Virus record (IMG/VR): IMGVR_UViG_2531839532_000006
DNA length: 13,767 bases
Strand: one strand, 5' to 3'
Source: a virus
Taxonomy: Duplodnaviria; Heunggongvirae; Uroviricota; Caudoviricetes
Shown here: positions 1 through 13,767 of the stretch, piece by piece
Layout of the letters: each line of letters begins with the position of its first letter
How positions within the stretch are numbered: position 1 is the stretch's first letter
Notes under the pieces: generated by a model
Seen by the model: only the letters and a program-made list of their open reading frames with translations
What the model was told of the DNA's origin: nothing
Database searches by the model: none
Program-made: the position numbers and the translations under genes

Positions 1-77
1 GCAGAAGAATTAGCCTGAAATTAAAAGGTCTGACTCCAATTGAATATCGGAATCAGACCTATATGCCTCGTGTTTAA
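1..77 (+). CDS. 3' end of an IS3-family transposase gene (OrfB C-terminus), 5'-truncated by the window edge
   Basis: Frame beginning at nt 3 reads RRISLKLKGLTPIEYRNQTYMPRV then TAA at 75-77. The KLKGL(T/S)P.EYR ending is characteristic of IS150-group IS3-family OrfB proteins, recalled from memory. Only 25 codons are visible. Confidence 0.4.
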   Translation, partial: RRISLKLKGLTPIEYRNQTYMPRV

Positions 78-252
78 CTGTCCAACTTTTTGGGGTCAGT
101 ACAATCTGAGGCCAATTTCATGCTAGACACATGTAGGTTAGCCTCTTACGTGCCGAAAGGCACGGAGAAGCAGGCTATTGTTAACACCAAGCTGTAATGT
201 CCCCTTTGAACCATTCTAAAATGTCCCCAGACAATTCTCTGGGGGATTTTTC

Positions 253-1566: not shown

Positions 1567-2002
1567 AACCAAGATCGATTCGGCTGAGTGCATATCCATT
1601 CATAGGGTAGATTCTTAAGTCGCGTTTCTGGTGTTCATTTTCGGGTGGTTTGTTACTTGTTTTACCGGGGATATGCCAGAAACGCGCTGAGTCAGTCTGG
1701 GCGGTGCGCGTAATGAGGCGTTATGGTAAATAGCCTATGCTAATGTCCGCTAAGAGCAAGAAGCGGAAGTTGGCAGTTTTGTGGACTGTCCCCACAAAAG
1801 TGACTACAGAAATAGTTGCAATTCATAATTGATCATGGGTTGTCAGTTAAACTCGTGGCGATTTAAATAGACTAATTGGGAGTGCGTCCATTACTTATAT
1901 CTTGTAATGTTAACTATCAGAAATGATACAAAGATAATATGTCTTTAAAGAAAAGGCTGATGGCGAAAAGTGGCCCGATGAGGGCCACAATACGGCTGTC
2001 AC

Positions 2003-2335
2003 TTAGACGTAAATATCAATGGTGCCAGCGGTATTTGTATCGTCTTTTTTCTCTTCTTTTTTATCAGGCTGAACTGTCGCGTCTTCATTCTTTTTCTCTG
2101 CCTGCTGCCTTAACAACTGCTCCAGTTGAGCCCAGAGGCTTTCAATTTGCTTCTGTACCAATGCAGCCATTTCTTTTTTCTGCTGTGTCGTCATCCCCTC
2201 TTCCGATGAGATTTTCCCAAGCTTTTCAGTCAGCACCTGAATTTGTCTTGTGATTTTGGCTATTTCTGATGTTCCTTCCGGGGCGGAGTTGTTTGAAATA
2301 ACGGTTGAGGTATTTCCCTGAATTGTGACAGACAT
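2003..2335 (-). CDS. flxA: FlxA-like protein (Gln/Lys-rich, coiled-coil-like; FliA-regulated in E. coli K-12 Qin prophage)
   Basis: 110-aa ORF with RBS AAAAGGAGAAATCT before the ATG. A sigma-28 type promoter lies immediately upstream. Gene order flxA / ydfV / relB / relE / hokD matches the Qin prophage as I recall it. Confidence 0.6.
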   Translation of the reverse strand: MSVTIQGNTSTVISNNSAPEGTSEIAKITRQIQVLTEKLGKISSEEGMTTQQKKEMAALVQKQIESLWAQLEQLLRQQAEKKNEDATVQPDKKEEKKDDTNTAGTIDIYV

Positions 2336-2358
2336 AGATTTCTCCTTTTAAAAAAGCA

Positions 2359-2385
2359 CTATCGGCATGCACAAAAAAATCTTTA
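2359..2385 (-). promoter_or_regulatory. sigma-28 (FliA) class III promoter for flxA: -35 TAAAGATT, 11-nt spacer, -10 GCCGATAG (read on minus strand)
   Basis: Reverse complement of 2359-2385 gives TAAAGATT-N11-GCCGATAG, against the consensus TAAAGTTT-N11-GCCGATAA. It sits about 25 nt upstream of the flxA start codon. Confidence 0.6.
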
Positions 2386-2537
2386 ATCGTATTTCTTGTG
2401 TCATTAATTGTTTGATGTTCAGATTGTTTTCCTCGCGGGCTGGCGCGCCTCAGAAAGTAAAGCTTGTTGACAGGGGTAAACGTTCGGCAATAATTTTCTG
2501 CCGCATGCGGGTGTTGCATAAAACGTGTTACGTTCCT

Positions 2538-2843
2538 TTATCGACAGGTCAGGTCACCGCTCACCCGCCGACGAGAAAGCAACACTGACATGCTAAAGCA
2601 AAAAATAGATGAATAAGTTGAGTTGTGCATATGTAGCCTGACCGTCACAAAGTATATGGTGTCTGTACCAGTAAGATGATGGCCGGACTCTTTAAAAACG
2701 AGCTGACCTGCACAATACAGGATGGACTTAGCAATGGCTGCTCCTGGCACAAAGCGGACAGTGATCACCGTTCTTACGACTACTTTCTGACTTCCTTCGT
2801 GACTTGCCCTAAGCATGTTGTAGTGCGATACTTGTAATGACAT
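2538..2843 (-). CDS. ydfV: Hypothetical protein, ydfV-like by position and length (101 aa)
   Basis: 101-aa ORF divergent from relB. Its start codon falls inside the relBE operator region and no RBS is evident, so it may not be translated. Confidence 0.3.
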   Translation of the reverse strand: MSLQVSHYNMLRASHEGSQKVVVRTVITVRFVPGAAIAKSILYCAGQLVFKESGHHLTGTDTIYFVTVRLHMHNSTYSSIFCFSMSVLLSRRRVSGDLTCR

Positions 2844-2856
2844 TTGTAATTACAAG
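2832..2856 (+). promoter_or_regulatory. relBE operator (relO): TTGTAAT repeats including the 12-bp perfect palindrome TTGTAATTACAA
   Basis: CTTGTAATGACATTTGTAATTACAAG lies directly upstream of the relB RBS (AGAGGTG) and start codon. The palindrome at 2844-2855 is seen directly. Confidence 0.6.
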
Positions 2857-2867
2857 AGGTGTAAGAC

Positions 2868-3107
2868 ATGGGTAGCATTAACCTGCGTATTGACGATGAA
2901 CTTAAAGCGCGTTCTTACGCCGCGCTTGAAAAAATGGGTGTAACTCCTTCTGAAGCGCTTCGTCTCATGCTCGAGTATATCGCTGACAATGAACGCTTGC
3001 CGTTCAAACAGACACTCCTGAGTGATGAAGATGCTGAACTTGTGGAGATAGTGAAAGAACGGCTTCGTAATCCTAAGCCAGTACGTGTGACGCTGGATGA
3101 ACTCTGA
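2868..3107 (+). CDS. relB: RelB antitoxin (ribbon-helix-helix)
   Basis: 79-aa ORF MGSINLRIDDELKARSYAALEKMGVTPSEALRLMLEYIADNERLPF... recognised as E. coli RelB. Its stop overlaps the relE start (ATGA at 3104-3110). Confidence 0.9.
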   Translation: MGSINLRIDDELKARSYAALEKMGVTPSEALRLMLEYIADNERLPFKQTLLSDEDAELVEIVKERLRNPKPVRVTLDEL

Positions 3108-3394
3108 TGGCGTATTTTCTGGATTTTGACGAGCGGGCACTAAAGGAATGGCGAAAGCTGGGCTCGACGGTACGTGAACAGTTGAAAAAGAAGCTGGTTG
3201 AAGTACTTGAGTCACCCCGGATTGAAGCAAACAAGCTCCGTGGTATGCCTGATTGTTACAAGATTAAGCTCCGGTCTTCAGGCTATCGCCTTGTATACCA
3301 GGTTATAGACGAGAAAGTTGTCGTTTTCGTGATTTCTGTTGGGAAAAGAGAACGCTCGGAAGTATATAGCGAGGCGGTCAAACGCATTCTCTGA
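3107..3394 (+). CDS. relE: RelE mRNA-interferase toxin
   Basis: 95-aa ORF MAYFLDFDERALKEWRKLGSTVREQLKKKLVEVLESPRIEANKLRGMPDCYKIKLRSSGYRLVYQVIDEKVVVFVISVGKRERSEVYSEAVKRIL recognised as E. coli RelE, translationally coupled to relB. Confidence 0.9.
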   Translation: MAYFLDFDERALKEWRKLGSTVREQLKKKLVEVLESPRIEANKLRGMPDCYKIKLRSSGYRLVYQVIDEKVVVFVISVGKRERSEVYSEAVKRIL

Positions 3395-3465
3395 ACCAAA
3401 GCATGACATCTCTGTTTCGCACCGAAGGTGACACTTCTGCTTTGCGTTGACAGGAGAAGCAGGCT

Positions 3466-3621
3466 ATGAAGCAGCAAAAGGCGATGTTAATCGCCCTGAT
3501 CGTCATCTGTTTAACCGTCATAGTGACGGCACTGGTAACGAGGAAAGACCTCTGCGAGGTACGAATCCGAACCGGCCAGACGGAGGTCGCTGTCTTCACA
3601 GCTTACGAACCTGAGGAGTAA
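3466..3621 (+). CDS. hokD: Hok-family small membrane toxin (HokD / RelF)
   Basis: 51-aa ORF below the ORF-track cutoff, translated by hand: MKQQKAMLIALIVICLTVIVTALVTRKDLCEVRIRTGQTEVAVFTAYEPEE. RBS GGAGAAGCAGG precedes the ATG at 3466; stop TAA at 3619-3621. One TM helix plus the conserved Hok C-terminus. Confidence 0.8.
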   Translation: MKQQKAMLIALIVICLTVIVTALVTRKDLCEVRIRTGQTEVAVFTAYEPEE

Positions 3622-3689
3622 GAGACCTGGCGGGGGAGAAATCCCTCGCCACCTCTGATGTGTCAGGCATCCTCAACGCACCCGCACTT

Positions 3690-3716
3690 AACCCGCTTCG
3701 GCGGGTTTTGTTTTTT
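3690..3716 (+). terminator. Rho-independent terminator ending the relBE-hokD operon
   Basis: AACCCGC-TTCG-GCGGGTT hairpin followed by TTTGTTTTTT. Confidence 0.7.
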
Positions 3717-3788
3717 CCTGGCATTCTGGTTTACAATTCGCACGTCAGCCTGAACACCTGACACCTGCTGCGCCAGCAGAGAAAACAG

Positions 3789-4061
3789 ATGGCGCACAAA
3801 ACCAAATTTCACAATTCTGATACCGACCTTGCCATCCGGCATGAGCGGCGTTCACACGCATTTAAAACCGACTGGTACCAACACCCACCATGTACTGAAG
3901 AACAGGCCGAATGGCTGATTCATAACTACCGCAGACGTGGATATGAGTTTAGGAAAGCCCTCACCCTCGATTATCGTCACTGGATAATCTACGTCAGACT
4001 CCCTTATTCCGAACGCCCACCGCGTCCGTCCCGCACATTCCAGCAACGCATCTGGAGGTAA
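3789..4061 (+). CDS. Small basic hypothetical protein, rem-like by position
   Basis: 90-aa ORF between hokD and the DUF968 gene. Its stop TAA (4059-4061) is 1 nt before the GTG start of the next gene. Confidence 0.4.
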   Translation: MAHKTKFHNSDTDLAIRHERRSHAFKTDWYQHPPCTEEQAEWLIHNYRRRGYEFRKALTLDYRHWIIYVRLPYSERPPRPSRTFQQRIWR

Positions 4062-4062
4062 C

Positions 4063-5109
4063 GTGCGGGTATTACTTCGACCTGTTCTGGTACCGGAACT
4101 CGGGCTGGTGATCGTTAAGCCGGGCCGTGAATCCATGCCGGTATTCCACAATACCCGGGTACTGGTGGAGCCGGAACCGAAAAGCATGCGTAATCTGCCG
4201 TCCGGGGTCGTTCCTGCCGTTCGCCAGCCGCTGGTGGAAGACAAAACATTGCTGCCGTTTTTCAGTAACGCACGGGTAATTCGTGCTGCTGGTGGTGCTG
4301 GTGCATTGTCTGACTGGCTGTTGCGCAATATTAAATCCTGCCAGTGGCCACACGGCGATTATCATCACAGCGAAACCGTTATTCACCGTTATGGTACCGG
4401 CGCAATGGTGTTGTGCTGGCACTGCGACAACCAGCTGCGTGACCAGACATCCGAATCACTCGAGCAACTTGCTCATCAAAACCTGTCAGCATGGATGATT
4501 GACGTCATCGGTCACGCAATAAGCGGTACGCAGGAGCGTGAATTATCTCTGGCTGAATTATCCTGGTGGGCGGTCCGCAATCAGGTGGCGGACGCGCTAC
4601 CGGAAGCGGTATTACGTCGTTCGCTGGGGTTGCGTGCGGAAAAAATCCGCTCAATGTACCGTGAAAGCGACATCGTACCGGGAGAGCAGACCGCCACCAG
4701 CATACTGAAGCAGCGCACAAAAAATCTTGCGCCGCTGCCTCACGCCCACCAGCAAAACCCGCCACAGGAAGAGACGGTGGTCAGCATTGCCGTTGATCCT
4801 GAGTCTCCGGAATCTTTCATGAAACGACCTAAACGTCGCCGCTGGGTTAACGAGAAATACACACGCTGGGTGAAGACACAGCCGTGTGCGTGTTGTGGTA
4901 AGCCAGCCGACGATCCCCATCACCTGATTGGTCATGGTCAGGGCGGAATGGGGACAAAATCTCACGATATTTTCACGCTACCGCTGTGTCGGGAGCATCA
5001 CAACGAGCTTCATGCGGATCCTCTGGCGTTCGAAGAAAAGCATGGTTCTCAGGTTGATTTAATTTTTCGTTTTCTTGATCACGCCTTTGCAACTGGCGTG
5101 CTTGGGTAA
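4063..5109 (+). CDS. ydfU: DUF968-type prophage protein (YdfU-like) with a C-terminal Cys/His HNH-like motif
   Basis: 348-aa ORF with GTG start, SD GGAGG 4 nt upstream. C-terminus CACCGKPADDPHHLIGHGQGGMGTKSHDIFTLPLCREHHNELH looks like a zinc-binding HNH-type fold. Position upstream of rusA and Q matches Qin ydfU (349 aa) as I recall it. Confidence 0.55.
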   Translation: MRVLLRPVLVPELGLVIVKPGRESMPVFHNTRVLVEPEPKSMRNLPSGVVPAVRQPLVEDKTLLPFFSNARVIRAAGGAGALSDWLLRNIKSCQWPHGDYHHSETVIHRYGTGAMVLCWHCDNQLRDQTSESLEQLAHQNLSAWMIDVIGHAISGTQERELSLAELSWWAVRNQVADALPEAVLRRSLGLRAEKIRSMYRESDIVPGEQTATSILKQRTKNLAPLPHAHQQNPPQEETVVSIAVDPESPESFMKRPKRRRWVNEKYTRWVKTQPCACCGKPADDPHHLIGHGQGGMGTKSHDIFTLPLCREHHNELHADPLAFEEKHGSQVDLIFRFLDHAFATGVLG

Positions 5110-5121
5110 AAGAGGTGACTG

Positions 5122-5496
5122 ATGCTCATAGATTTGGTTTTACCTTACCCGCCGACGGTGAACACTTACTGGCGACGCCGTGGCAGCACATATTTTGTAT
5201 CAAAAGCCGGGGAGCGTTATCGCCGGGCAGTGGCGCTTATTGTTCGCCAGCAGCGGCTGAAATTAAGCCTGTCCGGAAGGCTGGCGATAAAGGTGATTGC
5301 AGAGCCACCGGATAAGCGTCGTCGCGACCTGGACAATATCCTGAAAGCACCGCTGGATGCGCTGACGCATGCGGGAGTGTTAATGGACGATGAGCAGTTT
5401 GATGAAATCAATATCGTTCGTGGTCAGCCAGTATCTGGAGGACCTCTGGGGGTGAAGATTTACCCCATAATGCATGAAGAGCAGGTCAAAAAATGA
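5122..5496 (+). CDS. rusA: RusA-family Holliday-junction resolvase
   Basis: 124-aa ORF with LPYPPTVNTYWRRRG and RRRDLDNILKAPLDALTHAGVLMDDEQ motifs typical of RusA. SD AGAGGTG upstream; nin-region position immediately before Q. Confidence 0.85.
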   Translation: MLIDLVLPYPPTVNTYWRRRGSTYFVSKAGERYRRAVALIVRQQRLKLSLSGRLAIKVIAEPPDKRRRDLDNILKAPLDALTHAGVLMDDEQFDEINIVRGQPVSGGPLGVKIYPIMHEEQVKK

Positions 5497-6314
5497 AACT
5501 GGAAGATTTACCGAAATACTACTCCCCAAAATCCCCTTGCCTGACCGATGCATCGGCCTCAACGTCAAAAGATGCGCTGAGTATCACTGATGTGATGGCC
5601 GCGCAGGGCATGACACAGAATCGGGCTGAGATGGGGTTTTCTGCGTTCCTGGGGAAAATGGGCATCAGTATGAATGACAGGGCGCGGGCAACAGAATTAC
5701 TGGCAGATTATGCACTCAGTCGGTGCGATCGTGTGGCGGCGTTGAGAAAACTTCCGGCAGAAATAAAACCGGTAGTGATGCGCATTATGGCTACGTATGC
5801 GTTTGAAGATTATGCCCGCAGTGCAGCGAGTAAAAAGCAGTGTCCTTGTTGCCGTGGGGAAAAATTTATTGAAAGCATAGTTTTTACAAACAAGGTCCAG
5901 TATCCGGATGGTAAGCCGCCGGTATGGGCAAAGTGTACGAAAGGTGTGTATCCGTCTTACTGGGAAGAATGGAAAAAAGTCAGGGAGGTGGTAAAAGTTG
6001 CCTGTCCGGAGTGTGGCGGAAAGGGTGAGGTTTCCACCGCCTGTAAGGATTGCCGTGGGCGTGGTGTCGCCATTCATCGTGAAGAGTCGGTAAAACGTGG
6101 TATGCCTGTTATCAGAGACTGCCAGCGTTGTGATGGTCGTGGCTGTGAAAGACTACCATCAACGGAGGCATTTAATGCCATACGCAAAGTGACGAGTGCT
6201 ATCACGCTTGATACGTGGAAAAAATCAGTGAAACGCTTTTACGATACGTTGGTGGTTCGGTTTGACATTGAAGAGGCATGGGCGGAGCGGCAGTTAAAGA
6301 GGGTAACGCGATAG
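5493..6314 (+). CDS. Q: Late-gene antiterminator Q (zinc-ribbon-rich; Q82 / QuuQ-like)
   Basis: 273-aa ORF whose start overlaps the rusA stop (ATGA). Contains CPCCRG, CPECGGKG, CKDCRGRG and CQRCDGRG repeats. A promoter plus intrinsic terminator follow immediately downstream, as expected for Q. Confidence 0.7.
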   Translation: MKLEDLPKYYSPKSPCLTDASASTSKDALSITDVMAAQGMTQNRAEMGFSAFLGKMGISMNDRARATELLADYALSRCDRVAALRKLPAEIKPVVMRIMATYAFEDYARSAASKKQCPCCRGEKFIESIVFTNKVQYPDGKPPVWAKCTKGVYPSYWEEWKKVREVVKVACPECGGKGEVSTACKDCRGRGVAIHREESVKRGMPVIRDCQRCDGRGCERLPSTEAFNAIRKVTSAITLDTWKKSVKRFYDTLVVRFDIEEAWAERQLKRVTR

Positions 6315-6319
6315 TGTTG

Positions 6320-6347
6320 TTGATTTTTCCCGAATCTGTGGTAAATT
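6320..6347 (+). promoter_or_regulatory. Candidate late promoter PR' (-35 TTGATT, 16-nt spacer, -10 TAAATT) with presumed overlapping qut site
   Basis: Promoter-like hexamers sit directly after the Q stop codon and about 50 nt upstream of a strong intrinsic terminator. Confidence 0.45.
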
Positions 6348-6395
6348 TGCTCTAACGATGGGCGTTTTATGCCTGACGTTAGAAGATTTTTTACA

Positions 6396-6418
6396 CCCCG
6401 CCGCCTGGCGGGTTTTTT
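6396..6418 (+). terminator. tR'-like intrinsic terminator downstream of PR'
   Basis: CCCGCC-GCCT-GGCGGG hairpin followed by TTTTTT. Confidence 0.65.
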
Positions 6419-6538
6419 ATGACTGAAATCGCGTCAGTACAGTAAACGCGCTGGTGGCGGTGAATACCTGTCTTTCAGCTTGCTGGCTTTTTCGACAAGA
6501 GTTATTGGTGTGTCACGTTAACCGGAAAAGGAAAAGAC

Positions 6539-6736
6539 ATGCTAAAACAGCAGGATATGACAGAAACCGCCAGAGTGGTGTTTAATGAATTAAGCGTTAC
6601 CGACCCGGCGACAGTCGGGGAGATAGCGCAGAATACTTACCTTTCACGCGAACGCTGCCAGTTAATACTGACTCAGCTGGTTATGGCGGGTCTGGCAGAC
6701 TATCAGTTCGGTTGTTACAGACGCCTTCCGCAGTGA
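6539..6736 (+). CDS. Small hypothetical protein, possibly a winged-helix DNA-binding protein
   Basis: 65-aa ORF with a good RBS (AAAGGAAAAG, about 5 nt spacing). Its stop codon lies within an intrinsic terminator hairpin. Confidence 0.45.
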   Translation: MLKQQDMTETARVVFNELSVTDPATVGEIAQNTYLSRERCQLILTQLVMAGLADYQFGCYRRLPQ

Positions 6737-6747
6737 AGGCTTTTTTA
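6723..6747 (+). terminator. Intrinsic terminator overlapping the stop codon of the 65-aa ORF
   Basis: GCCTTC-CGCAGT-GAAGGC hairpin followed by TTTTTTATTT. Confidence 0.5.
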
Positions 6748-6763
6748 TTTGTGGTAAATGGGC

Positions 6764-6794
6764 GGCTGGTGGGTGTTAGGGGCACCCACCAGCC
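6764..6794. repeat. Perfect 12-bp inverted repeat (GGCTGGTGGGTG / CACCCACCAGCC, 7-nt loop) with no U-tract
   Basis: Seen directly in the leader of the methyltransferase gene. A second copy of the PR' core TGTGGTAAAT sits just upstream at 6752-6761. Confidence 0.6.
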
Positions 6795-6886
6795 ATCTGC
6801 TCATGCGTCCGGATCACAAGCAAACCTCAGGCCCACTGCTTTGCGCAAAAGCAGAATGAGCCTATCAGAGACAGGCTTAATGATCC

Positions 6887-7936
6887 ATGCTTAATACTGT
6901 AAAAATATCCAGTTGTGAGTTAATCAACGCCGACTGCCTGGAATTTATCCGGTCGTTACCCGAAAATTCTGTTGACCTGATAGTCACGGACCCGCCGTAC
7001 TTTAAAGTGAAGCCTGAGGGCTGGGATAACCAGTGGAAGGGCGACGATGATTACCTGAAGTGGCTGGACCAGTGTCTGGCGCAGTTCTGGCGGGTGCTGA
7101 AACCTGCCGGAAGTCTTTACCTGTTCTGTGGTCATCGCCTGGCATCTGATATCGAAATCATGATGCGTGAACGCTTCAGTGTGCTGAACCATATTATCTG
7201 GGCGAAGCCGTCCGGACGCTGGAACGGATGCAACAAGGAAAGCCTGCGGGCGTATTTCCCCGCCACAGAGCGCATTCTGTTCGCGGAACATTATCAGGGG
7301 CCGTATCGTCCGAAAGATGCCGGGTATGCGGCGAAGGGCAGTGCACTGAAACAGCATGTGATGGCCCCGCTGATTTCTTACTTTCGTGATGCGCGCGCGG
7401 CCCTGGGGATAACGGCAAAACAGATTGCAGATGCCACAGGAAAGAAAAACATGGTGTCGCACTGGTTCAGTGCCAGTCAGTGGCAGCTACCGAATGAAAG
7501 CGATTATCTGAAATTACAGGCGCTGTTTGCCCGGGTGGCAGAAGAGAAGCATCGGCGTGGTGAACTGGAAAAGCTCCACCACCAGCTGGTGGATACGTAT
7601 ACCTCACTGAACCGGCAGTATGCGGAGCTGCTGAGTGAATATAAACATCTGCGGCGGTATTTTGGCGTGACGGTGCAGGTGCCGTATACCGATGTGTGGA
7701 CGCATAAACCGGTGCAGTTCTATCCCGGGAAACATCCGTGCGAAAAACCGGCAGAAATGCTGCAGCAGATAATCAGCGCAAGCAGTCGTCCGGGTGACCT
7801 GGTTGCAGATTTTTTTATGGGCTCAGGTTCAACGGTAAAAGCTGCACTGGCGCTCGGGCGTCGTGCGATTGGCGTTGAACTGGAGACCGGACGTTTTGAG
7901 CAGACAGTCAGGGAAGTTCAGGATTTAATCGTTTGA
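6887..7936 (+). CDS. Orphan DNA methyltransferase, beta-class (DPPY motif; most likely N6-adenine)
   Basis: 349-aa ORF with motif IV DLIVTDPPYF near the N-terminus and an FxGxG-type AdoMet motif DFFMGSGST near the C-terminus. No adjacent restriction endonuclease candidate. Confidence 0.85.
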   Translation: MLNTVKISSCELINADCLEFIRSLPENSVDLIVTDPPYFKVKPEGWDNQWKGDDDYLKWLDQCLAQFWRVLKPAGSLYLFCGHRLASDIEIMMRERFSVLNHIIWAKPSGRWNGCNKESLRAYFPATERILFAEHYQGPYRPKDAGYAAKGSALKQHVMAPLISYFRDARAALGITAKQIADATGKKNMVSHWFSASQWQLPNESDYLKLQALFARVAEEKHRRGELEKLHHQLVDTYTSLNRQYAELLSEYKHLRRYFGVTVQVPYTDVWTHKPVQFYPGKHPCEKPAEMLQQIISASSRPGDLVADFFMGSGSTVKAALALGRRAIGVELETGRFEQTVREVQDLIV

Positions 7937-7947
7937 AACGGATGAGA

Positions 7948-7976
7948 TTGCAGAATTAATTACGCACCATTATTAT
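7948..7976 (+). promoter_or_regulatory. Candidate sigma-70 promoter for the tRNA genes (-35 TTGCAG, 17-nt spacer, -10 TATTAT)
   Basis: Hexamers with ideal spacing end about 10 nt before the tRNA 5' end. Confidence 0.45.
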
Positions 7977-7985
7977 TCTGCTCCC

Positions 7986-8061
7986 GGCCCTTTAGCTCAG
8001 TGGTGAGAGCGAGCGACTCATAATCGCCAGGTCGCTGGTTCAAATCCAGCAAGGGCCACCA
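7986..8061 (+). tRNA. ileZ: tRNA with CAU anticodon, ileZ-like (tRNA-Ile2 after lysidine modification, or tRNA-Met)
   Basis: Hand-folded cloverleaf: acceptor GGCCCTT / AAGGGCC, D-arm GCTC...GAGC, anticodon loop CTCATAA, T-arm GCTGG-TTCAAAT-CCAGC, encoded CCA. One A-C mismatch at the top of the anticodon stem. Confidence 0.8.
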
Positions 8062-8161
8062 TCACAAACCGCCATTAGCTTATCAGGAAGAGCAGACGAC
8101 ACGATAACAGGGTTGTTGGTGCGGGGGCGGGTCCCCGATGGCGGTCCATTATCGGTATTCA

Positions 8162-8235
8162 GCGTTGTTAGCTCAGCCGGACAGAGCAATTGCCTTCTAA
8201 GCAATCGGTCACTGGTTCGAATCCAGTACAGCGCG
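8162..8235 (+). tRNA. tRNA-Arg (anticodon UCU), argO-like; 3' CCA not encoded
   Basis: Hand-folded cloverleaf: acceptor GCGTTGT / ACAGCGC (one G-U pair), D-arm GCTC...GAGC, anticodon stem ATTGC / GCAAT with loop CTTCTAA, T-arm ACTGG-TTCGAAT-CCAGT. Discriminator G is followed by CTA. Confidence 0.8.
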
Positions 8236-8375
8236 CTATATTCATTCTTCCAGATTCCTTCCGGCAGAGCCTTATACTGAAATATACCTGGCTCAGGATA
8301 TTGTTGAAAATATTTTATGTTTGTCAAAAATAAAAGTTCTGTTAAGTATTGATTGAGTGTTTGTTATACGGTCTA

Positions 8376-8702
8376 ATGGTTTTTTCAGCATTAAATATTT
8401 ATCATTCATATGGTGTGGGTAGAGTGAATATTGATGAGGCGTCGGGGTGTTTCATCCTTAGGCAGCGTATTGATATAGTCAATGCAGGACGAGCAAAGGC
8501 CTTCAGCCGTTTGACAGTTTTGTTCTGTACTCCTGATCGTCTTTCGGGAAGAGACGTTATTATTCTGAATAGTGATGCTATACAGAGGGTTTGCGATGAG
8601 TTCATGGTTGCTAATTCAGAATTATTTGCTCTTGTTCAGGAGTACAACAGAATAGCCAGGACCTGTGGTATGGATGAACTTCGGATTACTCATCTGGGGT
8701 AG
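8376..8702 (+). CDS. Hypothetical protein (first gene of the cargo island), function unknown
   Basis: 108 aa from the ATG at 8376; the ORF track extends it to a TTG at 8349. No clear RBS; AT-rich upstream region with a weak promoter-like TTGTCA at 8321. Confidence 0.35.
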   Translation: MVFSALNIYHSYGVGRVNIDEASGCFILRQRIDIVNAGRAKAFSRLTVLFCTPDRLSGRDVIILNSDAIQRVCDEFMVANSELFALVQEYNRIARTCGMDELRITHLG

Positions 8703-9093
8703 ATACATATCTGGATTATCACTTGTTACGGTAAAAAGTGATTGCTTACTGTTTTTGTGAGTGGCATTGCAGCAGCCGGATAATGTCAGTGCTGGCTGAC
8801 GGTGTGCTGGTGGCGGGTGTGGTGGTTGTTGCTTTCCCGTTGCTGAAAAAGAAAACGCCAGACTGTTAGCCGGGTATCAGTTAGCGGGAGAAATTTTTAA
8901 ATACTTCACAATTCAGGCGGTTGACTGTTGTCTGGTTTGCGGGGAGTTTGTTAAAAGAAACTGGCATGGTGAATCCCCCTGTGCGGAGGGGCAATCAGCG
9001 AGTAGGTATATGGGATAATCGCGGATTCAGGTGCTGGTACTGAATTCACCGGGAGGCACCCGGCACCATGCAATGGCACATAGCGCCACTCTC

Positions 9094-9120
9094 CAGCCCC
9101 TCTCCGGAGGGGCTGTTTAT
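9094..9120 (+). terminator. Intrinsic terminator inside the cargo island
   Basis: CAGCCCCTC-TCCG-GAGGGGCTG hairpin followed by TTTATATTGATTTT. Confidence 0.5.
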
Positions 9121-9146
9121 ATTGATTTTGTCAGATGTGAGTAAAC

Positions 9147-9180
9147 TCCTTATGGACTTTGTTGTTTTAGTCCATAAGGA
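9147..9180 (-). terminator. Perfect 12-bp stem-loop overlapping the 3' end of the minus-strand ORF (possible terminator)
   Basis: TCCTTATGGACT-(10-nt loop)-AGTCCATAAGGA. On the minus strand it is followed by GTTTACTC, only moderately U-rich. It encodes the last residues (PYGLKQQSP) of ORF 9150..9485. Confidence 0.4.
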
Positions 9181-9485
9181 CATATTTGCAGAGTGCAACG
9201 GTTATTAAAGCATTCATTCAATACGTTATCTGTATTTGTAGGACATTCCTGGCTGTTTTTGATTAAATTCCAGAATGTTTTATTGAATGGTACTACGTTG
9301 TAAATGGTTACAGGTAGCACTTTGTTATTGAGCATGATACCTGTGTGAGTCAGTGTAAATATACTTTCAGGAGGTAAGAAAGCATCCGATTGATACCAGA
9401 TTATTAATTTTATTTTACTCCATATGACTGAAAAAGATATTCCGCATGATGGCTGGATAACTGTATCAATCACAATCCACTTCAT
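9150..9485 (-). CDS. Hypothetical protein in AT-rich cargo DNA, antisense to the late operon
   Basis: 111-aa ORF with a plausible RBS AAGGAAG about 5 nt before the ATG on the minus strand, and a possible -10 TATACT upstream. No signal peptide recognised; several Cys near the C-terminus. Confidence 0.4.
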
Positions 9486-9745
9486 TTAGCTTCCTTGTTT
9501 ATGCCTTGCTGGTGATGTTCTGAAAAGTATAAATGATATTTTTGAATATAAACCATAGAGCAGAATTATTTTTCTGATGTTGTTTATTGTTTATTTAAAT
9601 GCAGGGTGGTTTATATCTCGTCTTGTAGTTTATCCATGCATATCTGCTTGATGATCAGGTTTCTATTTAAGGTATGGTTTTGTGTTTTTTCTGTGTTACA
9701 TGTCTGGTATTTTAAAGAATTATTTTTCAGATGGTGGAAAGAACC

Positions 9746-9934
9746 ATGGCATTTAAACACTATGATGTTGTCAGGGCGGCGCCGCCGTCAGATCTTGCGG
9801 AAAAGCTGACACATAAACTGAAAGAGGGCTGGCAGCCGTTTGGTAGTCCGGTGGCCATAACCCCTTATACCCTGATGCAGGCGATTGCAGCAGAAGGTGA
9901 TGTGGTGGTCAGTGGTGCAACTGAGCCCGAGTGA
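9746..9934 (+). CDS. Small hypothetical protein (62 aa), possibly a DUF1737-type small prophage protein
   Basis: MAFKHYDVVRAAPPSDLAEKLTHKLKEGWQPFGSPVAITPYTLMQAIAAEGDVVVSGATEPE with RBS-like GGTGGAAAGAA upstream. The ORF track starts it at 9731. The family assignment is a weak recollection only. Confidence 0.45.
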   Translation: MAFKHYDVVRAAPPSDLAEKLTHKLKEGWQPFGSPVAITPYTLMQAIAAEGDVVVSGATEPE

Positions 9935-10089
9935 TACTACGTCATCGTACTGGCCCGGCATTCCAGGCCATAAAAGACAGTCTGGCAGTGGGACTAAATG
10001 TACTGACGCTGACGGATATTACCAAAAATGCAACGTATGGCGTTGAGATAGAAAGTCTGGTGCTGGAGATAAATGCACCGGCATCATCA
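9931..10089 (+). CDS. Possible small ORF (52 aa, GTG start) overlapping the previous stop (GTGA)
   Basis: VILRHRTGPAFQAIKDSLAVGLNVLTLTDITKNATYGVEIESLVLEINAPASS. No ATG in frame; could be a coupled gene or the frameshifted remainder of the upstream gene. Confidence 0.2.
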
Positions 10090-10177
10090 TAAAAAGTGAG
10101 CCAGTCAAATGGAAGGTATCGTTAAACTCACCGGTAGTGTCAGTGGGTCGTCTGAGATGCCTGCATGAGTTATCAGA

Positions 10178-10207
10178 GCCATCAGTACTTAACTGGTGGC
10201 TTTTTTT
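10178..10207 (+). terminator. Strong intrinsic terminator immediately upstream of the holin gene
   Basis: GCCATCAGT-ACTTA-ACTGGTGGC hairpin (one G-U pair) followed by TTTTTTT. Confidence 0.6.
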
Positions 10208-10242
10208 ATTGTTGTCAGCTTCCGGATAACGGGAGACGGGGT

Positions 10243-10458
10243 ATGTACCAGATGGAAAAAATCACAACAGGTGTGTCATACACCACGTCAGCGGTGGGAA
10301 CGGGCTACTGGTTCCTGCAGTTGCTGGACAGGGTTTCCCCGTCTCAGTGGGCGGCAATAGGCGTGCTGGGGAGTCTGCTGTTTGGGCTGCTGACATATCT
10401 GACTAACCTGTATTTCAAAATCAGAGAGGACCGTCGTAAGGCGGCACGGGGAGAGTAA
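10243..10458 (+). CDS. S: Class II holin, phage-21 S21-type pinholin, with dual-start motif (Met1 / Met4)
   Basis: 71 aa [79 protein letters not shown] sits 7 nt upstream. The longer ORF-track version from 10165 is an unsupported N-terminal extension. Confidence 0.85.
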
Positions 10459-10462
10459 TTCA

Positions 10463-10777
10463 ATGACTCAAAACTATGAACTGATTGTGAAAGGGATCCG
10501 CAATTTTGAGAATAAAGTTACGGTAACTTTAGCGTTACGGGACAAAAAACGCTTTGACGGTGAAATTTTTGACCTGGACATCTCGCTGGACCGTGTTGAA
10601 GGTGCCGCGCTGGAGTTTTATGAGGCAGCAGCCAGAAGGAGCATCAGACAGGTCTTCCTGGATGTTGCTGCCGGGTTATGTGAAGGGGACGAGCTGTTGC
10701 CAGAAACGCGCCCCTGTTCAGAGGCGCGGTATACCATAAAAATTAACAGTTCTGATAACTCGATTACGGGTTGTTAG
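10463..10777 (+). CDS. ydfR: YdfR-like hypothetical protein between holin and endolysin
   Basis: 104-aa ORF starting 5 nt after the holin stop. Position and length match ydfR of the Qin lysis cassette as I recall it. Confidence 0.5.
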   Translation: MTQNYELIVKGIRNFENKVTVTLALRDKKRFDGEIFDLDISLDRVEGAALEFYEAAARRSIRQVFLDVAAGLCEGDELLPETRPCSEARYTIKINSSDNSITGC

Positions 10778-10832
10778 CTTTTTGCAGTTGGCTTTCCAGT
10801 ATCTTTCATTGGTAGCATCCTGATAAATATCC

Positions 10833-11366
10833 ATGAGCGCAAAAATCAAATACGGCCTGTCAGCTGCTGTTCTGGCGCTGATTGCTGCAGGCGCGTCTGC
10901 TCCTCAGATACTTGACCAGTTTCTGGACGAAAAAGAGGGTAACCACACAACGGCATACCGCGATGGTTCCGGCAACTGGACCATCTGTCGGGGGGCCACG
11001 ATGGTGGATGGAAAACCCGTTTTTCCCGGTATGAAACTGTCGAAGGAAAAATGCGACCAGGTCAACGCCATTGAGCGTGATAAGGCGCTGGCATGGGTGG
11101 AGAAAAACATCAAAGTGCCATTGAGCGAACCCCAGAAAGCGGGGATCGCGTCATTCTGTCCGTACAACATTGGTCCCGGTAAGTGTTTCCCGTCGACGTT
11201 TTATAAACGAATTAATGCAGGTGATCACAGGGGAGCGTGTGAGGCGATTCGCTGGTGGATTAAGGACGGTGGCAGAGACTGCCGTATTCGTTCAAACAAT
11301 TGCTACGGTCAGGTATCCCGTCGTGACCAGGAGAGCGCGCTGGCGTGCTGGGGTATCGACAGATAA
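10833..11366 (+). CDS. R: SAR endolysin (T4-lysozyme-like muramidase with N-terminal signal-anchor-release domain)
   Basis: 177-aa ORF with a Gly/Ala-rich weakly hydrophobic N-terminus (YGLSAAVLALIAAGASAP) and an E-8aa-D-5aa-T catalytic spacing (DEKEGNHTTAYRDGSGNWT). Partner of the pinholin. Confidence 0.9.
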   Translation: MSAKIKYGLSAAVLALIAAGASAPQILDQFLDEKEGNHTTAYRDGSGNWTICRGATMVDGKPVFPGMKLSKEKCDQVNAIERDKALAWVEKNIKVPLSEPQKAGIASFCPYNIGPGKCFPSTFYKRINAGDHRGACEAIRWWIKDGGRDCRIRSNNCYGQVSRRDQESALACWGIDR

Positions 11367-11456
11367 GCAGAATATTTTGCTGAAAAATAAGGCATGGCCA
11401 CGCGGGCGGATAACATGAAATCCTGCGAAGTGGCGAAACGTAAGTGAATAAAAGTA

Positions 11457-11490
11457 AAAACCCCGTTTGTTGGCACCAAGCGGGGTTTTG
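11457..11490 (+). terminator. Intrinsic terminator-like hairpin between endolysin and spanin genes
   Basis: AAAACCCCG-(15-nt loop)-CGGGGTTTT followed by GTGTTT. Confidence 0.5.
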
Positions 11491-11525
11491 TGTTTCCTGA
11501 CTCCGGAAAAGTCAAAGGAGAAAGT

Positions 11526-11663
11526 GTGTTTGATTTTAGCAAACTGATTCGGGAGATTCGAGTGATGGCTGAAAAATTATCCACCTGGAAGTTCATTCTT
11601 ATCTGGCTGGTGTTTGTGATTATGGCCTCCGGTTATTTCATCGGTCAGATACGCTGGTGGTGA
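11526..11663 (+). CDS. Small single-pass membrane protein (45 aa), unannotated, translationally coupled to Rz
   Basis: Hand-translated: GTG at 11526 with RBS AAAGGAG 5 nt upstream (ATG 11565 is an alternative start). Product [45 protein letters not shown]. Stop TGA at 11661-11663 is 1 nt before the Rz ATG. Confidence 0.4.
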
Positions 11664-11664
11664 A

Positions 11665-12129
11665 ATGAACCGCGTACTGTGCGTGGTCATCATTGCCCTG
11701 CTGGTGGCCTGTGGTGCGCTTAGTCTGGGGCTGAATCATTACCGTGATAACGCCATTACCTACAAAGCCCAGCGCGACAAAAATGTCAGAGAACTGAAGC
11801 TGGCGAACGCGGCAATTACTGACATGCAGATGCGTCAGCGTGATGTTGCTGCGCTCGATGCAAAATACACGAAGGAGTTAGCTGATGCGAAAGCTGAAAA
11901 TGATGCTCTGCGTGATGATGTTGCCGCTGGTCGTCGTCGGTTGCACATCAAAGCAGTCTGTCAGTCAGTGCGTGAAGCCACCACCGCCTCCGGCGTGGAT
12001 AATGCAGCCTCCCCCCGACTGGCAGACACCGCTGAACGGGATTATTTCACCCTCAGAGCGCGACTGATAATAATGCAAAAACAACTTGAAGGGGCACAGC
12101 TATACATTCGAGAGCAATGCCTCAGATAA
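11665..12129 (+). CDS. Rz: Rz i-spanin (inner-membrane spanin subunit)
   Basis: 154-aa ORF with an N-terminal TM helix ([18 protein letters not shown]) and coiled-coil periplasmic domain. Follows the endolysin and contains an embedded +1-frame ORF. Confidence 0.85.
11885..12067 (+). CDS. Rz1: Rz1 o-spanin (outer-membrane lipoprotein) embedded in Rz in the +1 frame
   Basis: 60-aa ORF with lipobox LPLVVVGC and a proline-rich mature region ([18 protein letters not shown]), entirely inside Rz. Confidence 0.75.
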
Positions 12130-12436
12130 AAACCGGCCAAGGATAATCCGCTGAAGATTCGCCGGTGGCTAAAGTGTGCCAAGAGTTCAATTTACGCAAT
12201 TACTCCTGTCGATGCTATGCACCGTCTTTGTGAAGTCAATGGATACCTGATTTATTTCTGTGCGCTGTATCGTCGCTGTACTCTTGCATTAATTATGACT
12301 GTAGCCTGACGGGGAACTCCTTCTGCACAAGTGTGGGGGAATAATCAAAAACGATGCACACCGGGGTTACCGGGTACACATATTTCATCATGCCAGCGAG
12401 TCCGGTTCTGGTACGGAAGAAACCGGACGTTATGAT

Positions 12437-12715
12437 TTAGTGCGGAAATATTTGTGTAGTGTTCTGAATGTTCTCAGTAAAGAGTAATGAATTATCAAAG
12501 GTATAGTAATATCTTTTGTTTTCGTGGATATTTGTAATCCATCTGAAAACCCCTGCTGTAGCAAGATTTTTCCTGTATTCGTAAAATGATAACTCTCCTG
12601 ATTTGAATCCTTTTAAGGTGGCTTCTATAAGGCATTTATTTTTTGAAAATCTTACATTTACAACCTTACCCTGCTCTCCAATGACTAGTCTAAAAACTAG
12701 TATTAAGACTATCAC
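12437..12715 (-). CDS. Hypothetical protein in AT-rich DNA after the lysis cassette (bor-position moron)
   Basis: 92-aa ORF with a GTG start and no clear RBS. The start codon lies inside a 20-bp perfect palindrome; a stem-loop at 12400-12428 follows the stop. Confidence 0.3.
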
Positions 12716-12729
12716 TTATTTAAGTGATA
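12710..12729. promoter_or_regulatory. 20-bp perfect palindrome TATCACTTATTTAAGTGATA (operator-like)
   Basis: Seen directly. The TATCAC half-sites resemble lambda-type operator half-sites. It overlaps the start of ORF 12437..12715. Confidence 0.5.
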
Positions 12730-12932
12730 TTGGTTGTCTGGAGATTCAGGGGGCCAGTCTAATAGTAAATGTAATGTGAGACATTGTGACGTTTTAGCTC
12801 AGAATAAAACCATTGATAGTTTAAATCGTTTCGAACTTTATCAAATATTTGTTTAAAAATGACTACCTGATCCATAGATAAACCTTCCATGTGATATGAG
12901 GGGGCGTAGTCTGCACGATTATCTAAATTGCT

Positions 12933-13509: not shown

Positions 13510-13767
13510 GTAAGCGACTCGTCAGAACCGTATTGATATTTACTGAGAGCTCAGATCAACTTTCCAGGGCAACAGATCGCGTACCCGGTTTGCCGGCCAG
13601 TCCTGGATATGTTCAATGACGTAACGCAGCCACTTTTCTGGCTCCACATTGTTCAGACGGCATGTGCCGATCAGCGAGTACAACACCGCCGCATGTTCAC
13701 CACCGCTGTCGGAACCCGCGAACATCCAGTTTTTCCGGCCTACGGCCACTCCCCGTAAGGCGTTCTC
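13510..13767 (-). mobile_element. IS66-family insertion sequence, terminal part (GTAAGCG terminus), extending beyond the window
   Basis: Similarity to lambda cos ends at 13509. 13510 begins GTAAGCGACTCG, the terminal motif typical of IS66-family ends, and an IS66-type transposase C-terminus is encoded about 30 bp inside. Confidence 0.7.
13540..13767 (-). CDS. IS66-family transposase (TnpC), C-terminal portion; 5' part lies beyond the window
   Basis: Minus-strand frame is open to the window edge and reads ENALRGVAVGRKNWMFAGSDSGGEHAAVLYSLIGTCRLNNVEPEKWLRYVIEHIQDWPANRVRDLLPWKVDLSSQ, the conserved IS66 TnpC C-terminus. Confidence 0.75.
   Translation of the reverse strand, partial: ENALRGVAVGRKNWMFAGSDSGGEHAAVLYSLIGTCRLNNVEPEKWLRYVIEHIQDWPANRVRDLLPWKVDLSSQ

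Follow-up and report, generated by a model that had tools for sequence, protein, structure and literature searches.

Background

The anti-adaptor IraL was characterised in 2014 in uropathogenic Escherichia coli (UPEC) CFT073, where it was shown to keep RpoS stable during log phase (Hryckowian et al. 2014, PMC4045071). Its gene is located on the potB island, which is a prophage. RssB binding, RpoS stabilisation and a transcription start site mapped by 5'RACE were all shown, and the native promoter fragment spans -100 to +33 relative to that site (PMC4045071). According to that report, IraL acts in log phase and binds RssB at its N-terminal domain only; IraM, by contrast, engages both RssB domains and responds to Mg2+ starvation (PMC4045071).

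Other components of comparable loci have been described as well. STnc100 is an already known, curated Rfam family (RF02076), treated together with the PasD sRNAs (Zhu, Shabalina & Storz 2026 preprint; Pearl Mizrahi 2021). It has been reported just downstream of stx2, and STnc_100 was detected by RT-qPCR in outer-membrane vesicles of STEC (PMC12370729). NanS-p of Stx phages is a yjhS-type prophage 9-O-acetyl sialate esterase of ~630 aa, encoded directly upstream of the holin gene. In the Stx2a-converting phage Stx2_EH1910 (LC567834), elements of all these kinds occur together, in the order Q, small ORF, methylase, tRNAs, cassette, STnc100, iraM-family gene (minus strand), nanS-p and holin.

We analysed a stretch of phage DNA of 13,767 nt (IMG/VR record IMGVR_UViG_2531839532_000006), referred to as the window, in which an earlier examination made without database searches (the sequence-only reading) had pointed to an uncharacterised cargo island at positions 8240-10165.

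Organization of the tRNA-to-holin interval

The backbone of the window consists of a Q antiterminator gene (5493-6314), a methylase gene (6887-7936), two tRNA genes (7986-8061 and 8162-8236) and a P21-type holin gene (10243-10458). The first tRNA (+ strand) has the CAU anticodon; ARAGORN assigns it to Met, but in RefSeq the identical gene appears as tRNA-Ile, i.e. Ile2. The second is tRNA-Arg (UCU, + strand), which forms the left flank of the cargo cassette. The segment between them (8062-8161, +) is a degenerate remnant of a further tRNA-Arg, being 71% identical to the spacer of CFT073 in which that gene is intact; neither ARAGORN nor Rfam calls a tRNA there, whereas the middle tRNA-Arg is intact in CFT073 and in Stx phages. 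The right boundary is set by the class II holin gene (+ strand), whose product carries the dual-start motif MYQM (PF04971, 111 bits; also annotated by RefSeq).

The interval so delimited was claimed to be equivalent to the stx site. This is borne out by alignment with Stx2_EH1910, in which homology breaks ~10 nt downstream of tRNA-Arg (~8246) and resumes at ~8906. The architecture also agrees with published descriptions of the slot (Tree 2014; Zhu et al. 2026) and with EPEC PP2. The four ORFs listed by the sequence-only reading (8376..8702 +, 9150..9485 -, 9746..9934 + and 9931..10089 +) are indeed present as such, and the AT-rich stretch that it placed at about 9150-9730 was recovered in windowed GC analysis (0.31-0.33 across ~9150-9750 vs 0.48 for the whole window). 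That none of the ORFs could be assigned proved wrong for three of the four, which correspond to iraL and to the 5' and 3' remnants of nanS-p (see below).

Two intrinsic terminators were thought to bracket the island. Both hairpins were found (9094-9115 and 10175-10203) and fold stably (-20.3 kcal/mol, z=-4.2; also a 12-bp stem followed by U7), and the window contains 10 terminator-like sites vs 4.1 +/- 2.4 in shuffled sequences. The bracketing itself does not stand, since the 9094-9115 hairpin is the own terminator of the STnc100 sRNA. The other one, with the 12-bp stem and U7 (10174-10210, +), lies 33 nt upstream of the holin start and would shield the lysis genes from upstream transcription that is not antiterminated. 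In EPEC PP2 a different + strand terminator occupies the same pre-holin position.

Content of the Q-to-S interval varies as cargo does. Among 5426 complete E. coli genomes, its sub-modules are found independently of each other, in 1185, 1446 and 2860 genomes, and the whole block in 859. The modules of the island thus assort independently. With a probability of roughly 0.9, we regard 8240-10165 as the part of the late operon of a lambdoid prophage that carries accessory ("moron") genes, a mosaic whose four modules were inherited separately.

The same locus is present in CFT073. Gene order from tRNAs to holin is the same at ~98% nucleotide identity (98% column identity for window positions 7940-10260), with the same truncation of nanS-p; the ORFs of DUF3927 and phrog_2873 are shared too, the latter 99.2% identical. 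The two differ in that CFT073 has IS200C between Q and the tRNAs, where the window has the DNA methylase gene, in the degeneration of the middle tRNA-Arg and in the host background, which for the window is that of ETEC-like chromosomes. Since this locus resides in a well-studied strain, the island matters little as a discovery lead: its main gene iraL, the sRNA STnc100 and the architecture of the slot have all been published already. At the stx position itself, the island holds only one small protein gene, for which the searches pointed to no function, and a tiny membrane peptide.

The cassette at the stx position

According to the alignment with Stx2_EH1910, the segment ~8247-8905 takes the place of stx2AB between tRNA-Arg and the conserved downstream sRNA. 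The cassette flanks are common to both phages; the cassette of Stx2_EH1910 is stx2AB, whereas that of the window consists of the phrog_2873 and DUF3927 ORFs. The Shiga toxin cassette itself (ORFs of the A-subunit RIP and the B subunit) is absent, as no similarity to stx2AB was detected between the junctions and no toxin was matched in Pfam.

The first ORF has a conserved core of 92 codons (8424-8702, +) that matches phrog_2873 over full length (E=3e-70). Translation could also begin further upstream in the same frame, at TTG 8349 or ATG 8376. The core is free of indels at 67% nucleotide identity and its dN/dS is 0.27 in frame vs 1.2 and 0.8 off frame, a substitution pattern which indicates that this is a real gene under purifying selection. 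Its distant relatives, 91-95 aa in length, begin at the conserved core. A small gene under purifying selection, with no feature annotated by RefSeq under the match in the records examined, is found at the exact stx position in about one fifth of complete E. coli genomes.

The second ORF (8738-8869, +) encodes a DUF3927/TciB-like peptide of 43 aa (PF13064, 95.6 bits vs cutoff 25; phrog_1470, E=8e-13) and is annotated by RefSeq. Its hydropathy profile displays a single hydrophobic segment followed by KKK. A literature search on DUF3927 and TciB, confined to the collection consulted, retrieved nothing relevant. The cassette is thus predicted to encode a ~92-aa helical-hairpin protein and a 43-aa single-pass membrane peptide. 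Because it lies on the late strand downstream of tR' and of the presumed position of PR', its ORFs would be transcribed by Q-modified RNA polymerase upon induction, as far as position and strand only can tell.

It is conceivable, though we would not expect it, that the cassette represents a functional late-expressed moron, encoding a small coiled-coil effector which, possibly acting jointly with the membrane peptide, changes the physiology of host or phage during induction and can be exchanged for stx. Its placement exactly between the flanks that hold stx2AB and the purifying selection on phrog_2873 are consistent with such a role, and so is its conservation at >=95% identity in 1185 of the 5426 genomes. 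A relative of the phrog_2873 protein with 40% identity is encoded ~1 kb downstream of a different type of Q, and DUF3927 recurs directly upstream of STnc100/PasD in CFT073, EPEC PP2 and mEp460. The AF2 model of the phrog_2873 protein, a helical hairpin, is confident (pLDDT 84.8), but Foldseek searches with it against PDB and BFVD returned generic helical hairpins only (E>0.4). Sequence searches argue against the moron role in a similar way: a word-indexed search gave 23 near relatives, an exhaustive HMMER profile search of 1.84 billion representatives only 20 relatives, none of them annotated, and in none of the searches was homology to a characterised family found. Moreover, no convincing ribosome-binding site precedes any of the candidate starts and the ORF is not called by the RefSeq pipeline. 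More specifically, the phrog_2873 protein, on its own or jointly with the DUF3927 peptide, could be an accessory factor of a new kind that depends on Q, is swapped for stx between the shared flanks and acts on the host, competing phages or the lysis programme at induction; this is clearly less probable, and we consider it unlikely. Transfer of function from a phrog_4827 member was rejected as too marginal (21% identity, member located in a Mu-like baseplate module).

The STnc100 gene

The region from 8935 to 9124 (+ strand) matches the complete Rfam model of STnc100 (RF02076, positions 1-206 of 206; 132.4 bits vs gathering score 47, E=1.5e-29). It is identical with CFT073 in 190 of 190 positions and homologous to the sequence directly after stx2B. 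The 3' end corresponds to the hairpin 9094-9115 with its U-tract; analogy with PasD2 places the probable 5' end close to 8964. The published STnc_100 qPCR primers (PMC12370729) match the window exactly at 8965-8984 and 9038-9057. The gene would give an sRNA of the Hfq type, transcribed from the + strand and carrying its own terminator. The sequence-only reading overlooked both this gene and the DUF3927 ORF. In RefSeq, a minus-strand "hypothetical pseudogene" is repeatedly laid across the sRNA gene, which is a recurring annotation error.

As in described STnc100/PasD loci, the gene is located downstream of a moron CDS/DUF3927 and upstream of a sialate esterase gene, and the 5' core GCATGGTGAATCC is common to PasD2 and the window sRNA. 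On the other hand, the TGTGAG element carried by the aligned EPEC PasD2 region, which corresponds to the published PasD seed, is absent, and the sRNA of the window is of the STnc100 type. The locus further departs from this arrangement by insertion of iraL between the sRNA gene and the esterase remnant and by absence of the partner sRNA PasA. An anti-sRNA of the AsxR or AgvB kind, convergent with the + strand sRNA, was also considered and rejected: RF02703 and RF02702 reached the gathering threshold nowhere in the window, and the segment 9480-10300 was free of matches even at E<=1.

The iraL gene

The minus-strand ORF 9150-9485 encodes a protein of 111 aa that is identical with CFT073 IraL in all 111 residues, an RssB anti-adaptor of the IraM/IraL/RssC family. 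The gene (c1429 in CFT073, where it is induced at 37 °C) thus contradicts the view of the island as uncharacterised. The coding sequences agree in 334 of 336 nt (99.4%), the two differences leaving the protein unchanged, and accession WP_000871291.1 is common to CFT073 and to an ETEC genome that matches the window 100%. Published iraL matches are >=95% identical over the whole coding region (PMC4045071), a range into which the window gene falls. Family membership is further indicated by NCBIfam NF007393 (162 bits vs curated cutoff 121) and by the structure of IraM (PDB 8TWD_A, E=9e-32 over residues 1-78). The Pfam copy used recognises no IraM-family protein even at E<=10, which is why the ORF looked unassignable by Pfam; the family call rests on NCBIfam, PDB and direct identity. 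DUF1737 was the sole Pfam match among the four ORFs of the sequence-only reading.

Compared with K-12 IraM (8TWD, PMC10844676), homology extends over full length at 62% identity. Among the RssB-contact residues defined by the crystal structure of IraM-RssB, 11 of 15 are identical in IraL, including all five of cluster I; three others are changed conservatively (T13S, L75I, I64V) and one, H63N in cluster III, non-conservatively. Both genes are AT-rich, lie on the minus strand and have a prophage-associated origin (iraM is next to e14). On the contrary, the two proteins belong to different clades and differ by a C-terminal extension of 4 residues, and the regions upstream of the genes cannot be confidently aligned. 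In Stx2_EH1910 the iraM-family gene is only 73% identical to that of the window.

Given 100% identity of the protein and 97% identity of the promoter, the window protein is expected to bind the N-terminal domain of the adaptor RssB and to stabilise RpoS in log phase. RssB bound by IraL would no longer deliver RpoS to ClpXP, so that sigma-S would build up in growing cells. The gene would then act in lysogenic conversion, being expressed in the lysogen without induction, with late transcription running antisense to it. The expectation that contents of the island are expressed through Q on induction cannot hold for iraL, because it lies antisense to the late operon and has its own promoter, with a mapped start site and log-phase expression in uninduced cells of CFT073.

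Located between Q and the lysis genes of a lambdoid prophage, beside the site of the stx cassette, iraL is a classic moron. In at least one Stx2a phage an iraM-family gene adjoins stx2AB, so that one kind of element can carry both the toxin and RpoS stabilisation.

The iraL promoter

The segment 9486-9618 (- strand, GC 0.31), comprising the 5'UTR and promoter of iraL, would correspond to the published -100 to +33 construct. It is identical to CFT073 in 129 of 133 positions (97%); for iraL-bearing strains, identity of >=96% to CFT073 has been described in this upstream region (PMC4045071). By comparison with the mapped site, we infer the transcription start at ~9518, with a putative -10 element TATACT, read from the sequence, at 9531-9526, so that iraL (9485-9150) would be transcribed from its own sigma-70 promoter in AT-rich DNA. 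Of the four substitutions, one (9519) is at or next to the putative start, while two others fall in the 5'UTR close to the ribosome-binding site. Expression level of iraL could therefore differ from that in CFT073.

Upstream of iraL, 96-112 nt before its ATG, there is a direct repeat TGTTTA-N5-TATTTA (9581-9597, + strand), which speculatively resembles a PhoP box. If functional, it would make iraL subject to PhoP and low Mg2+ as K-12 iraM is, instead of being constitutively active in log phase. The repeat is the sole match with at most one mismatch in the window, and a one-mismatch box occurs at identical offset in the diverged iraM copy of the Stx2a phage. Such regulation is nevertheless improbable. 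The number of matches is within shuffle expectation and the site is embedded in AT-rich DNA; it is in reverse orientation, ~63-79 nt upstream of the putative start. Furthermore, the -100 to +33 fragment is expressed in log phase in LB, and the conditions for IraL and IraM were explicitly contrasted (PMC4045071).

The nanS-p remnant

The ORFs 9746..9934 and 9931..10089, listed as separate by the sequence-only reading, turned out to be two ends of one decayed nanS-p gene. The first (+ strand) is its 5' remnant encoding the DUF1737 domain (PF08410), 56 of 62 residues being identical to the N-terminus of NanS-p (90%); it is terminated by a TGG to TGA change at 9932-9934 and carries a RefSeq pseudogene flag. 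The rest of the pseudogene (9935-10092, +) contains an indel of 1 nt at ~9966, as seen in DNA alignment, and a junction of a ~1.7-kb deletion at ~9970-9985, followed by the last ~35 codons. The ORF 9931..10089 reads across this debris. Its recognisable C-terminal part of ~30 residues matches NanS-p residues 596-626 (15 of 31 identical) and positions 582-632 of 634 in phrog_143. Hence only residues ~1-62 and ~596-631 of NanS-p remain in the window, at the same position directly upstream of holin as in Stx phages. The catalytic SASA/SGNH domain is absent as an intact unit, whereas nanS-p of Stx2_EH1910, a phage with three intact tRNAs, is of full length (632 codons). The sequence of 9746-10092 thus indicates a dead sialate O-acetylesterase gene with nonsense codon, frameshift and ~1.7-kb deletion. 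Since the catalytic body is deleted and preceded by premature stop and frameshift, no esterase can be made. The dead gene is followed by the terminator that is predicted to shield holin from read-through.

We wondered if the truncated DUF1737 ORF might have been kept as a functional stand-alone protein of 62 aa after loss of the esterase body. The family phrog_2036, comprising stand-alone proteins of 67 aa, matches it end to end (E=1e-45), but may merely gather copies of the same widespread truncated allele. The ORF is intact in phage vB_EcoS-640R1 and, nearly identical, in CFT073, where the single coding difference (9928) is synonymous; divergence is too small for a selection test. The ORF ends at a simple TGG to TGA change in an otherwise collinear nanS-p, with frameshift and deletion behind it, which is a classic course of decay, and the pseudogene flag of RefSeq points in the same direction. 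Retention of a functional protein is accordingly quite doubtful, and decay of nanS-p is the preferred explanation.

The nanS-p remainder also contains a verbatim copy (10047-10077, +) of the PasA target site from the 3' end of the EPEC esterase gene. The window has the target site only: the ~250-nt EPEC segment with pasA is absent and exact-string searches with a PasA fragment and the seed core gave no match. An sRNA of the PasA/PasC type ending at the pre-holin terminator was rejected, as PasA is encoded on the opposite strand in the very segment that the window lacks, and a permissive Rfam scan was empty.

Toxin and defence families

That the whole island constitutes a new module for toxicity, defence or host modulation, expressed through Q on induction like stx, is very improbable and, for the island as a unit, already largely refuted: the slot is correct, its content varies across genomes and one gene (phrog_2873) matched no characterised family, but iraL, as the largest intact gene, has been characterised, lies on the opposite strand and has its own promoter, two ORFs are pseudogene fragments, one "terminator" is part of the known sRNA STnc100 and a Stx-like ORF is absent. 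Nor do the individual genes, put forward as prime candidates for such a module, behave as expected, as PADLOC assigned none of the six island ORFs tested to a defence family and their matches in Pfam, NCBIfam and PHROGs include no toxin family. The upstream methylase, which lies outside the island, was matched in PADLOC by MTase_II models.

Genomic context and equivalence to the stx slot

The window comprises the late-regulatory and lysis section of a lambdoid prophage, with genes identified across it using annotation from Pfam, NCBIfam and RefSeq. Upstream of the tRNAs it encodes a DUF968 protein, RusA, the Q antiterminator (5493-6314), a small ORF and an N6/N4 DNA methylase (6887-7936). These are followed by a tRNA with CAU anticodon (7986-8061) and tRNA Arg-UCU (8162-8236), and, after the interval 8240-10165, by a P21-type holin (10243-10458), a YdfR/DUF1327 protein, lysozyme and Rz. 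A strong terminator, CCCGCCGCCTGGCGGG plus T6, is located a short distance 3' of Q (6397-6412), and a promoter-like pair, TTGATT...TAAATT, could be read by eye just past Q within 6315-6412. These elements probably represent tR' and PR', in which case a short constitutive transcript of about 60 nt is expected. The sequence between the two tRNAs (8062-8161) is a degenerate middle tRNA-Arg copy (71% identity, central part scrambled) that was called by neither ARAGORN nor Rfam; CFT073 and Stx phages have an intact version of this tRNA.

The sequence-only reading had taken the tRNA-to-holin interval for an uncharacterised cargo island at the site occupied by stx in Stx phages. Gene order and pairwise alignment with the Stx2a-converting phage Stx2_EH1910 show that equivalence to the stx slot is exact. 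The phage order is Q, small ORF, methylase, three tRNAs, stx2AB, an iraM-family gene (minus strand), a full-length nanS-p/yjhS (prophage sialate O-acetylesterase) and holin. Homology continues past tRNA-Arg as far as ~8246, stops there and reappears at ~8906, some 45 nt past stx2B; window positions ~8247-8905 therefore hold a different cassette in place of stx2AB, at what is the moron site of Stx phages. Also present as proposed are the four ORFs, both hairpin terminators and the AT-rich stretch (GC 0.31-0.34 over 9150-9745 versus 0.48 overall). The term "uncharacterised", on the other hand, has to be abandoned: the locus is already known and comprises iraL, STnc100 and a nanS-p pseudogene, accompanied by a small unannotated gene and a DUF3927 peptide. 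Nothing in it points to the suspected new toxin or defence module, and only a modest lead remains in the cassette.

The minus-strand ORF encodes IraL

The protein encoded by ORF 9150-9485 (minus strand) belongs to the IraM family of RssB anti-adaptors in NCBIfam (162 bits versus curated cutoff of 121) and matches the crystallised IraM chain 8TWD_A (E=9e-32). It is 62% identical to K-12 IraM, 73% to the Stx2a-phage copy and completely identical (111/111) to the CFT073 protein; accession WP_000871291.1 is common to CFT073 and the window-matching ETEC genome. By these matches the ORF is iraL. The CFT073 gene, formerly ycgW, was named iraL and assigned to the potB island (Hryckowian et al. 2014, PMC4045071); its locus tag is c1429 (PMC12890032). 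Gene order in the potB region identifies this "genomic island" as a lambdoid prophage, arranged as Q, IS200C, three tRNAs, DUF3927, IraM-family gene, DUF1737 pseudogene and holin, and window positions 7940-10260 are ~98% identical to it overall.

In CFT073, iraL raises the level and stability of RpoS in log phase and has a promoter of its own, whose TSS was mapped by 5'RACE; a fragment spanning -100..+33 suffices in K-12 (PMC4045071). This fragment is conserved in the window at 129 of 133 positions. Counting from "+33", we infer a TSS near 9518 and a putative -10 box TATACT at 9531->9526. The crystal structure (PMC10844676) defines 15 RssB-contacting residues of IraM; 11 of these are identical in window IraL, three are changed conservatively and one differs (H63N). 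Since iraL is oriented antisense to the late operon and active in uninduced cells, expression through Q antitermination, suggested for the island's contents, is not applicable to it.

The window copy falls in an IraM-family clade (90% cluster of 1045 member sequences) that is separate from the K-12 IraM clade and has the Stx2a-phage copy as its sister. In K-12 (1,211,680-1,213,107) iraM is followed by ycgX (DUF1398), and the lysis cassette of the window also precedes a DUF1398 gene. The iraM-ycgX locus beside e14 may be a collapsed remnant of such a prophage late region.

The last iraL codons and the stop are spanned by a 12-bp hairpin (9148-9181, minus strand; -17.5 kcal/mol, z=-4.3) that encodes QQSP, four C-terminal residues extra relative to IraM. 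Because only a short U-run follows, it would be a weak terminator at best. In precomputed tables every IraM homolog (P0024-P0043) carries PF11183, whereas a local Pfam-A search at E<=10 gave zero matches for IraL, K-12-type IraM (P0032) and divergent homolog P0040. This discrepancy would mislead annotation based on Pfam only.

Two ORFs are remnants of one nanS-p gene

ORFs 9746-9934 and 9931-10092 had been regarded as separate unassignable genes. On comparison with NanS-p they are two ends of one dead gene. The first matches the NanS-p N-terminus (DUF1737; 56/62 identical) and terminates where a Trp codon, TGG, is changed to TGA. A 1-nt indel follows and about 1.7 kb coding for the esterase body is missing. 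The second frame restores the last ~30 NanS-p residues (15/31 identical; positions 582-632 of 634 in phrog_143). Retention of the DUF1737 stub as a small functional protein is less parsimonious than a pseudogene, and RefSeq also flags the first piece as such.

STnc100 sRNA and the terminators

Rfam scan of the whole window detected, besides two tRNAs, a full-length RF02076 STnc100 at 8935-9124 (132.4 bits versus gathering score of 47; E=1.5e-29). The stem at 9094-9115 forms the 3' hairpin of this sRNA, so the first of the terminators thought to bracket the island is really the 3' end of an sRNA gene. The window contains exact matches to published STnc_100 qPCR primers; the same paper locates STnc_100 downstream of the stx2 operon at a distance of 75 nt (PMC12370729), and our alignment with Stx2_EH1910 is consistent with this distance. 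STnc100 was described as related to PasD, located upstream of the sialate esterase, with PasA/PasC between esterase and holin (Zhu, Shabalina and Storz, 2026 preprint). The order in EPEC E2348/69 prophage PP2 is similar: Q, moron CDS, DUF3927, pasD2, esterase, pasA, holin. The layout also agrees with the account of this slot by Tree et al. (2014).

Mechanical ORFs overlapping STnc100 (8921-9043, plus; 8951-9079, minus) are probably non-coding, as is the RefSeq minus-strand "hypothetical pseudogene". A minus-strand "hypothetical protein, incomplete" covers the STnc100/PasD gene in ETEC, CFT073 and EPEC records alike, which looks like recurrent mis-annotation of an sRNA locus. An extended -10-like TGnTAAAAG occurs within 8949-8966, just 5' of the conserved GCATGGTGAATCC core, and the 5'-most EPEC PasD2 RIL-seq fragments begin at 741,157, a few nt from the equivalent position. 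By this analogy the transcript may start near 8964 and not at position 1 of the Rfam model (8935).

The second terminator (10174-10210) was considered as the end of a PasA-like sRNA. This was ruled out: PasA lies on the other strand, and neither the window nor CFT073 has the ~250-nt segment that carries it. Only its target site, located in the 3' end of the esterase (10047-10077), is retained; a permissive Rfam scan of 9480-10300 gave zero matches. Most simply, the terminator insulates holin from non-antiterminated transcription. EPEC has a different terminator at the matching position.

A small unannotated gene in the cassette

The cassette consists of two plus-strand ORFs. The first, 8376-8702, aligns over its full length with phrog_2873 (E=3e-70), a family listed under unknown function, with zero matches in Pfam, NCBIfam and PADLOC. 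Its 92-codon core was compared with that of a homolog (58% identical; GCA_045757245.1 contig) that occupies another Q-to-esterase slot. The dN/dS value is 0.27 in frame versus 1.2 and 0.8 in the other frames; at 67% nucleotide identity there are zero indels, the stop is common to both and third positions hold 44 of 92 differences. On this evidence the ORF behaves as a real gene. Its start is probably GTG 8424, not ATG 8376 or TTG 8349, because distant relatives, 91-95 aa in length, start where the core does. A search of 1.84 billion representatives recovered a tiny family of 20 proteins at E<=0.001, and a 40%-identical relative is also found ~1 kb downstream of a Q of different type. The AlphaFold model (pLDDT 84.8) predicts two long helices with a short beta tip between them, and structure searches with it returned generic hairpins only.

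At >=95% identity, 1185 of the 5426 complete genomes carry the ORF region. Zero features are annotated under the match in five of six RefSeq records examined and in the annotated regions analysed; 8349-8702 is a systematic gene-calling gap. The second ORF (8738-8869) encodes a DUF3927/TciB-like peptide of 43 aa that contains a single hydrophobic segment. DUF3927 is a short distance upstream of STnc100/PasD also in CFT073, EPEC PP2 and phage mEp460. Both ORFs are accessory genes on the late strand and are likely transcribed from PR' on induction.

Mosaicism and distribution

Positions 8240-10165 are 100% identical to several ETEC chromosomes. Among 5426 complete E. coli genomes, 859 carry the whole block at >=80% coverage. 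Its parts are also found separately: the left module (8240-9072) without iraL in phage mEp460_ev081, the right one (8906-10165) without the left in several vB_EcoS phages. STnc100 is present in 2860 of the 5426 genomes, in up to 12 copies per genome, and iraL plus promoter in 1446. The Q-to-esterase slot is both a cargo and an IS hotspot. Elsewhere (L006, the above contig, 1810-6507; L003; L009, EPEC) it contains a TolA-like protein and an AraC-family regulator, as well as IS3-family and IS2 insertions; the EPEC PP2 occupant is a 247-aa hypothetical protein.

Window positions 3452-12673 are 99.97% identical to ETEC 300709, after which ~87 nt differ. The differing segment (12674-12760) cuts in two the ORF of a DUF1398 gene (12437-12890, minus strand) and is similar to the end of an IS3-family element in L006 (4999-5084); it is probably an IS-end scar. 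At the right edge, where the ETEC reference has terminase genes, a C-terminal fragment of IS66-family transposase is found (13540-13749, minus strand), and the prophage appears truncated or interrupted shortly past the lysis cassette. Upstream of hokD (1-3450) the window also diverges from the ETEC reference. The order there, IS transposase (HTH plus rve_3; 253-1566), FlxA-like gene (2003-2335, minus strand), relB/relE (2868-3394) and hokD (3466-3621), is one that we take to resemble the K-12 Qin prophage.
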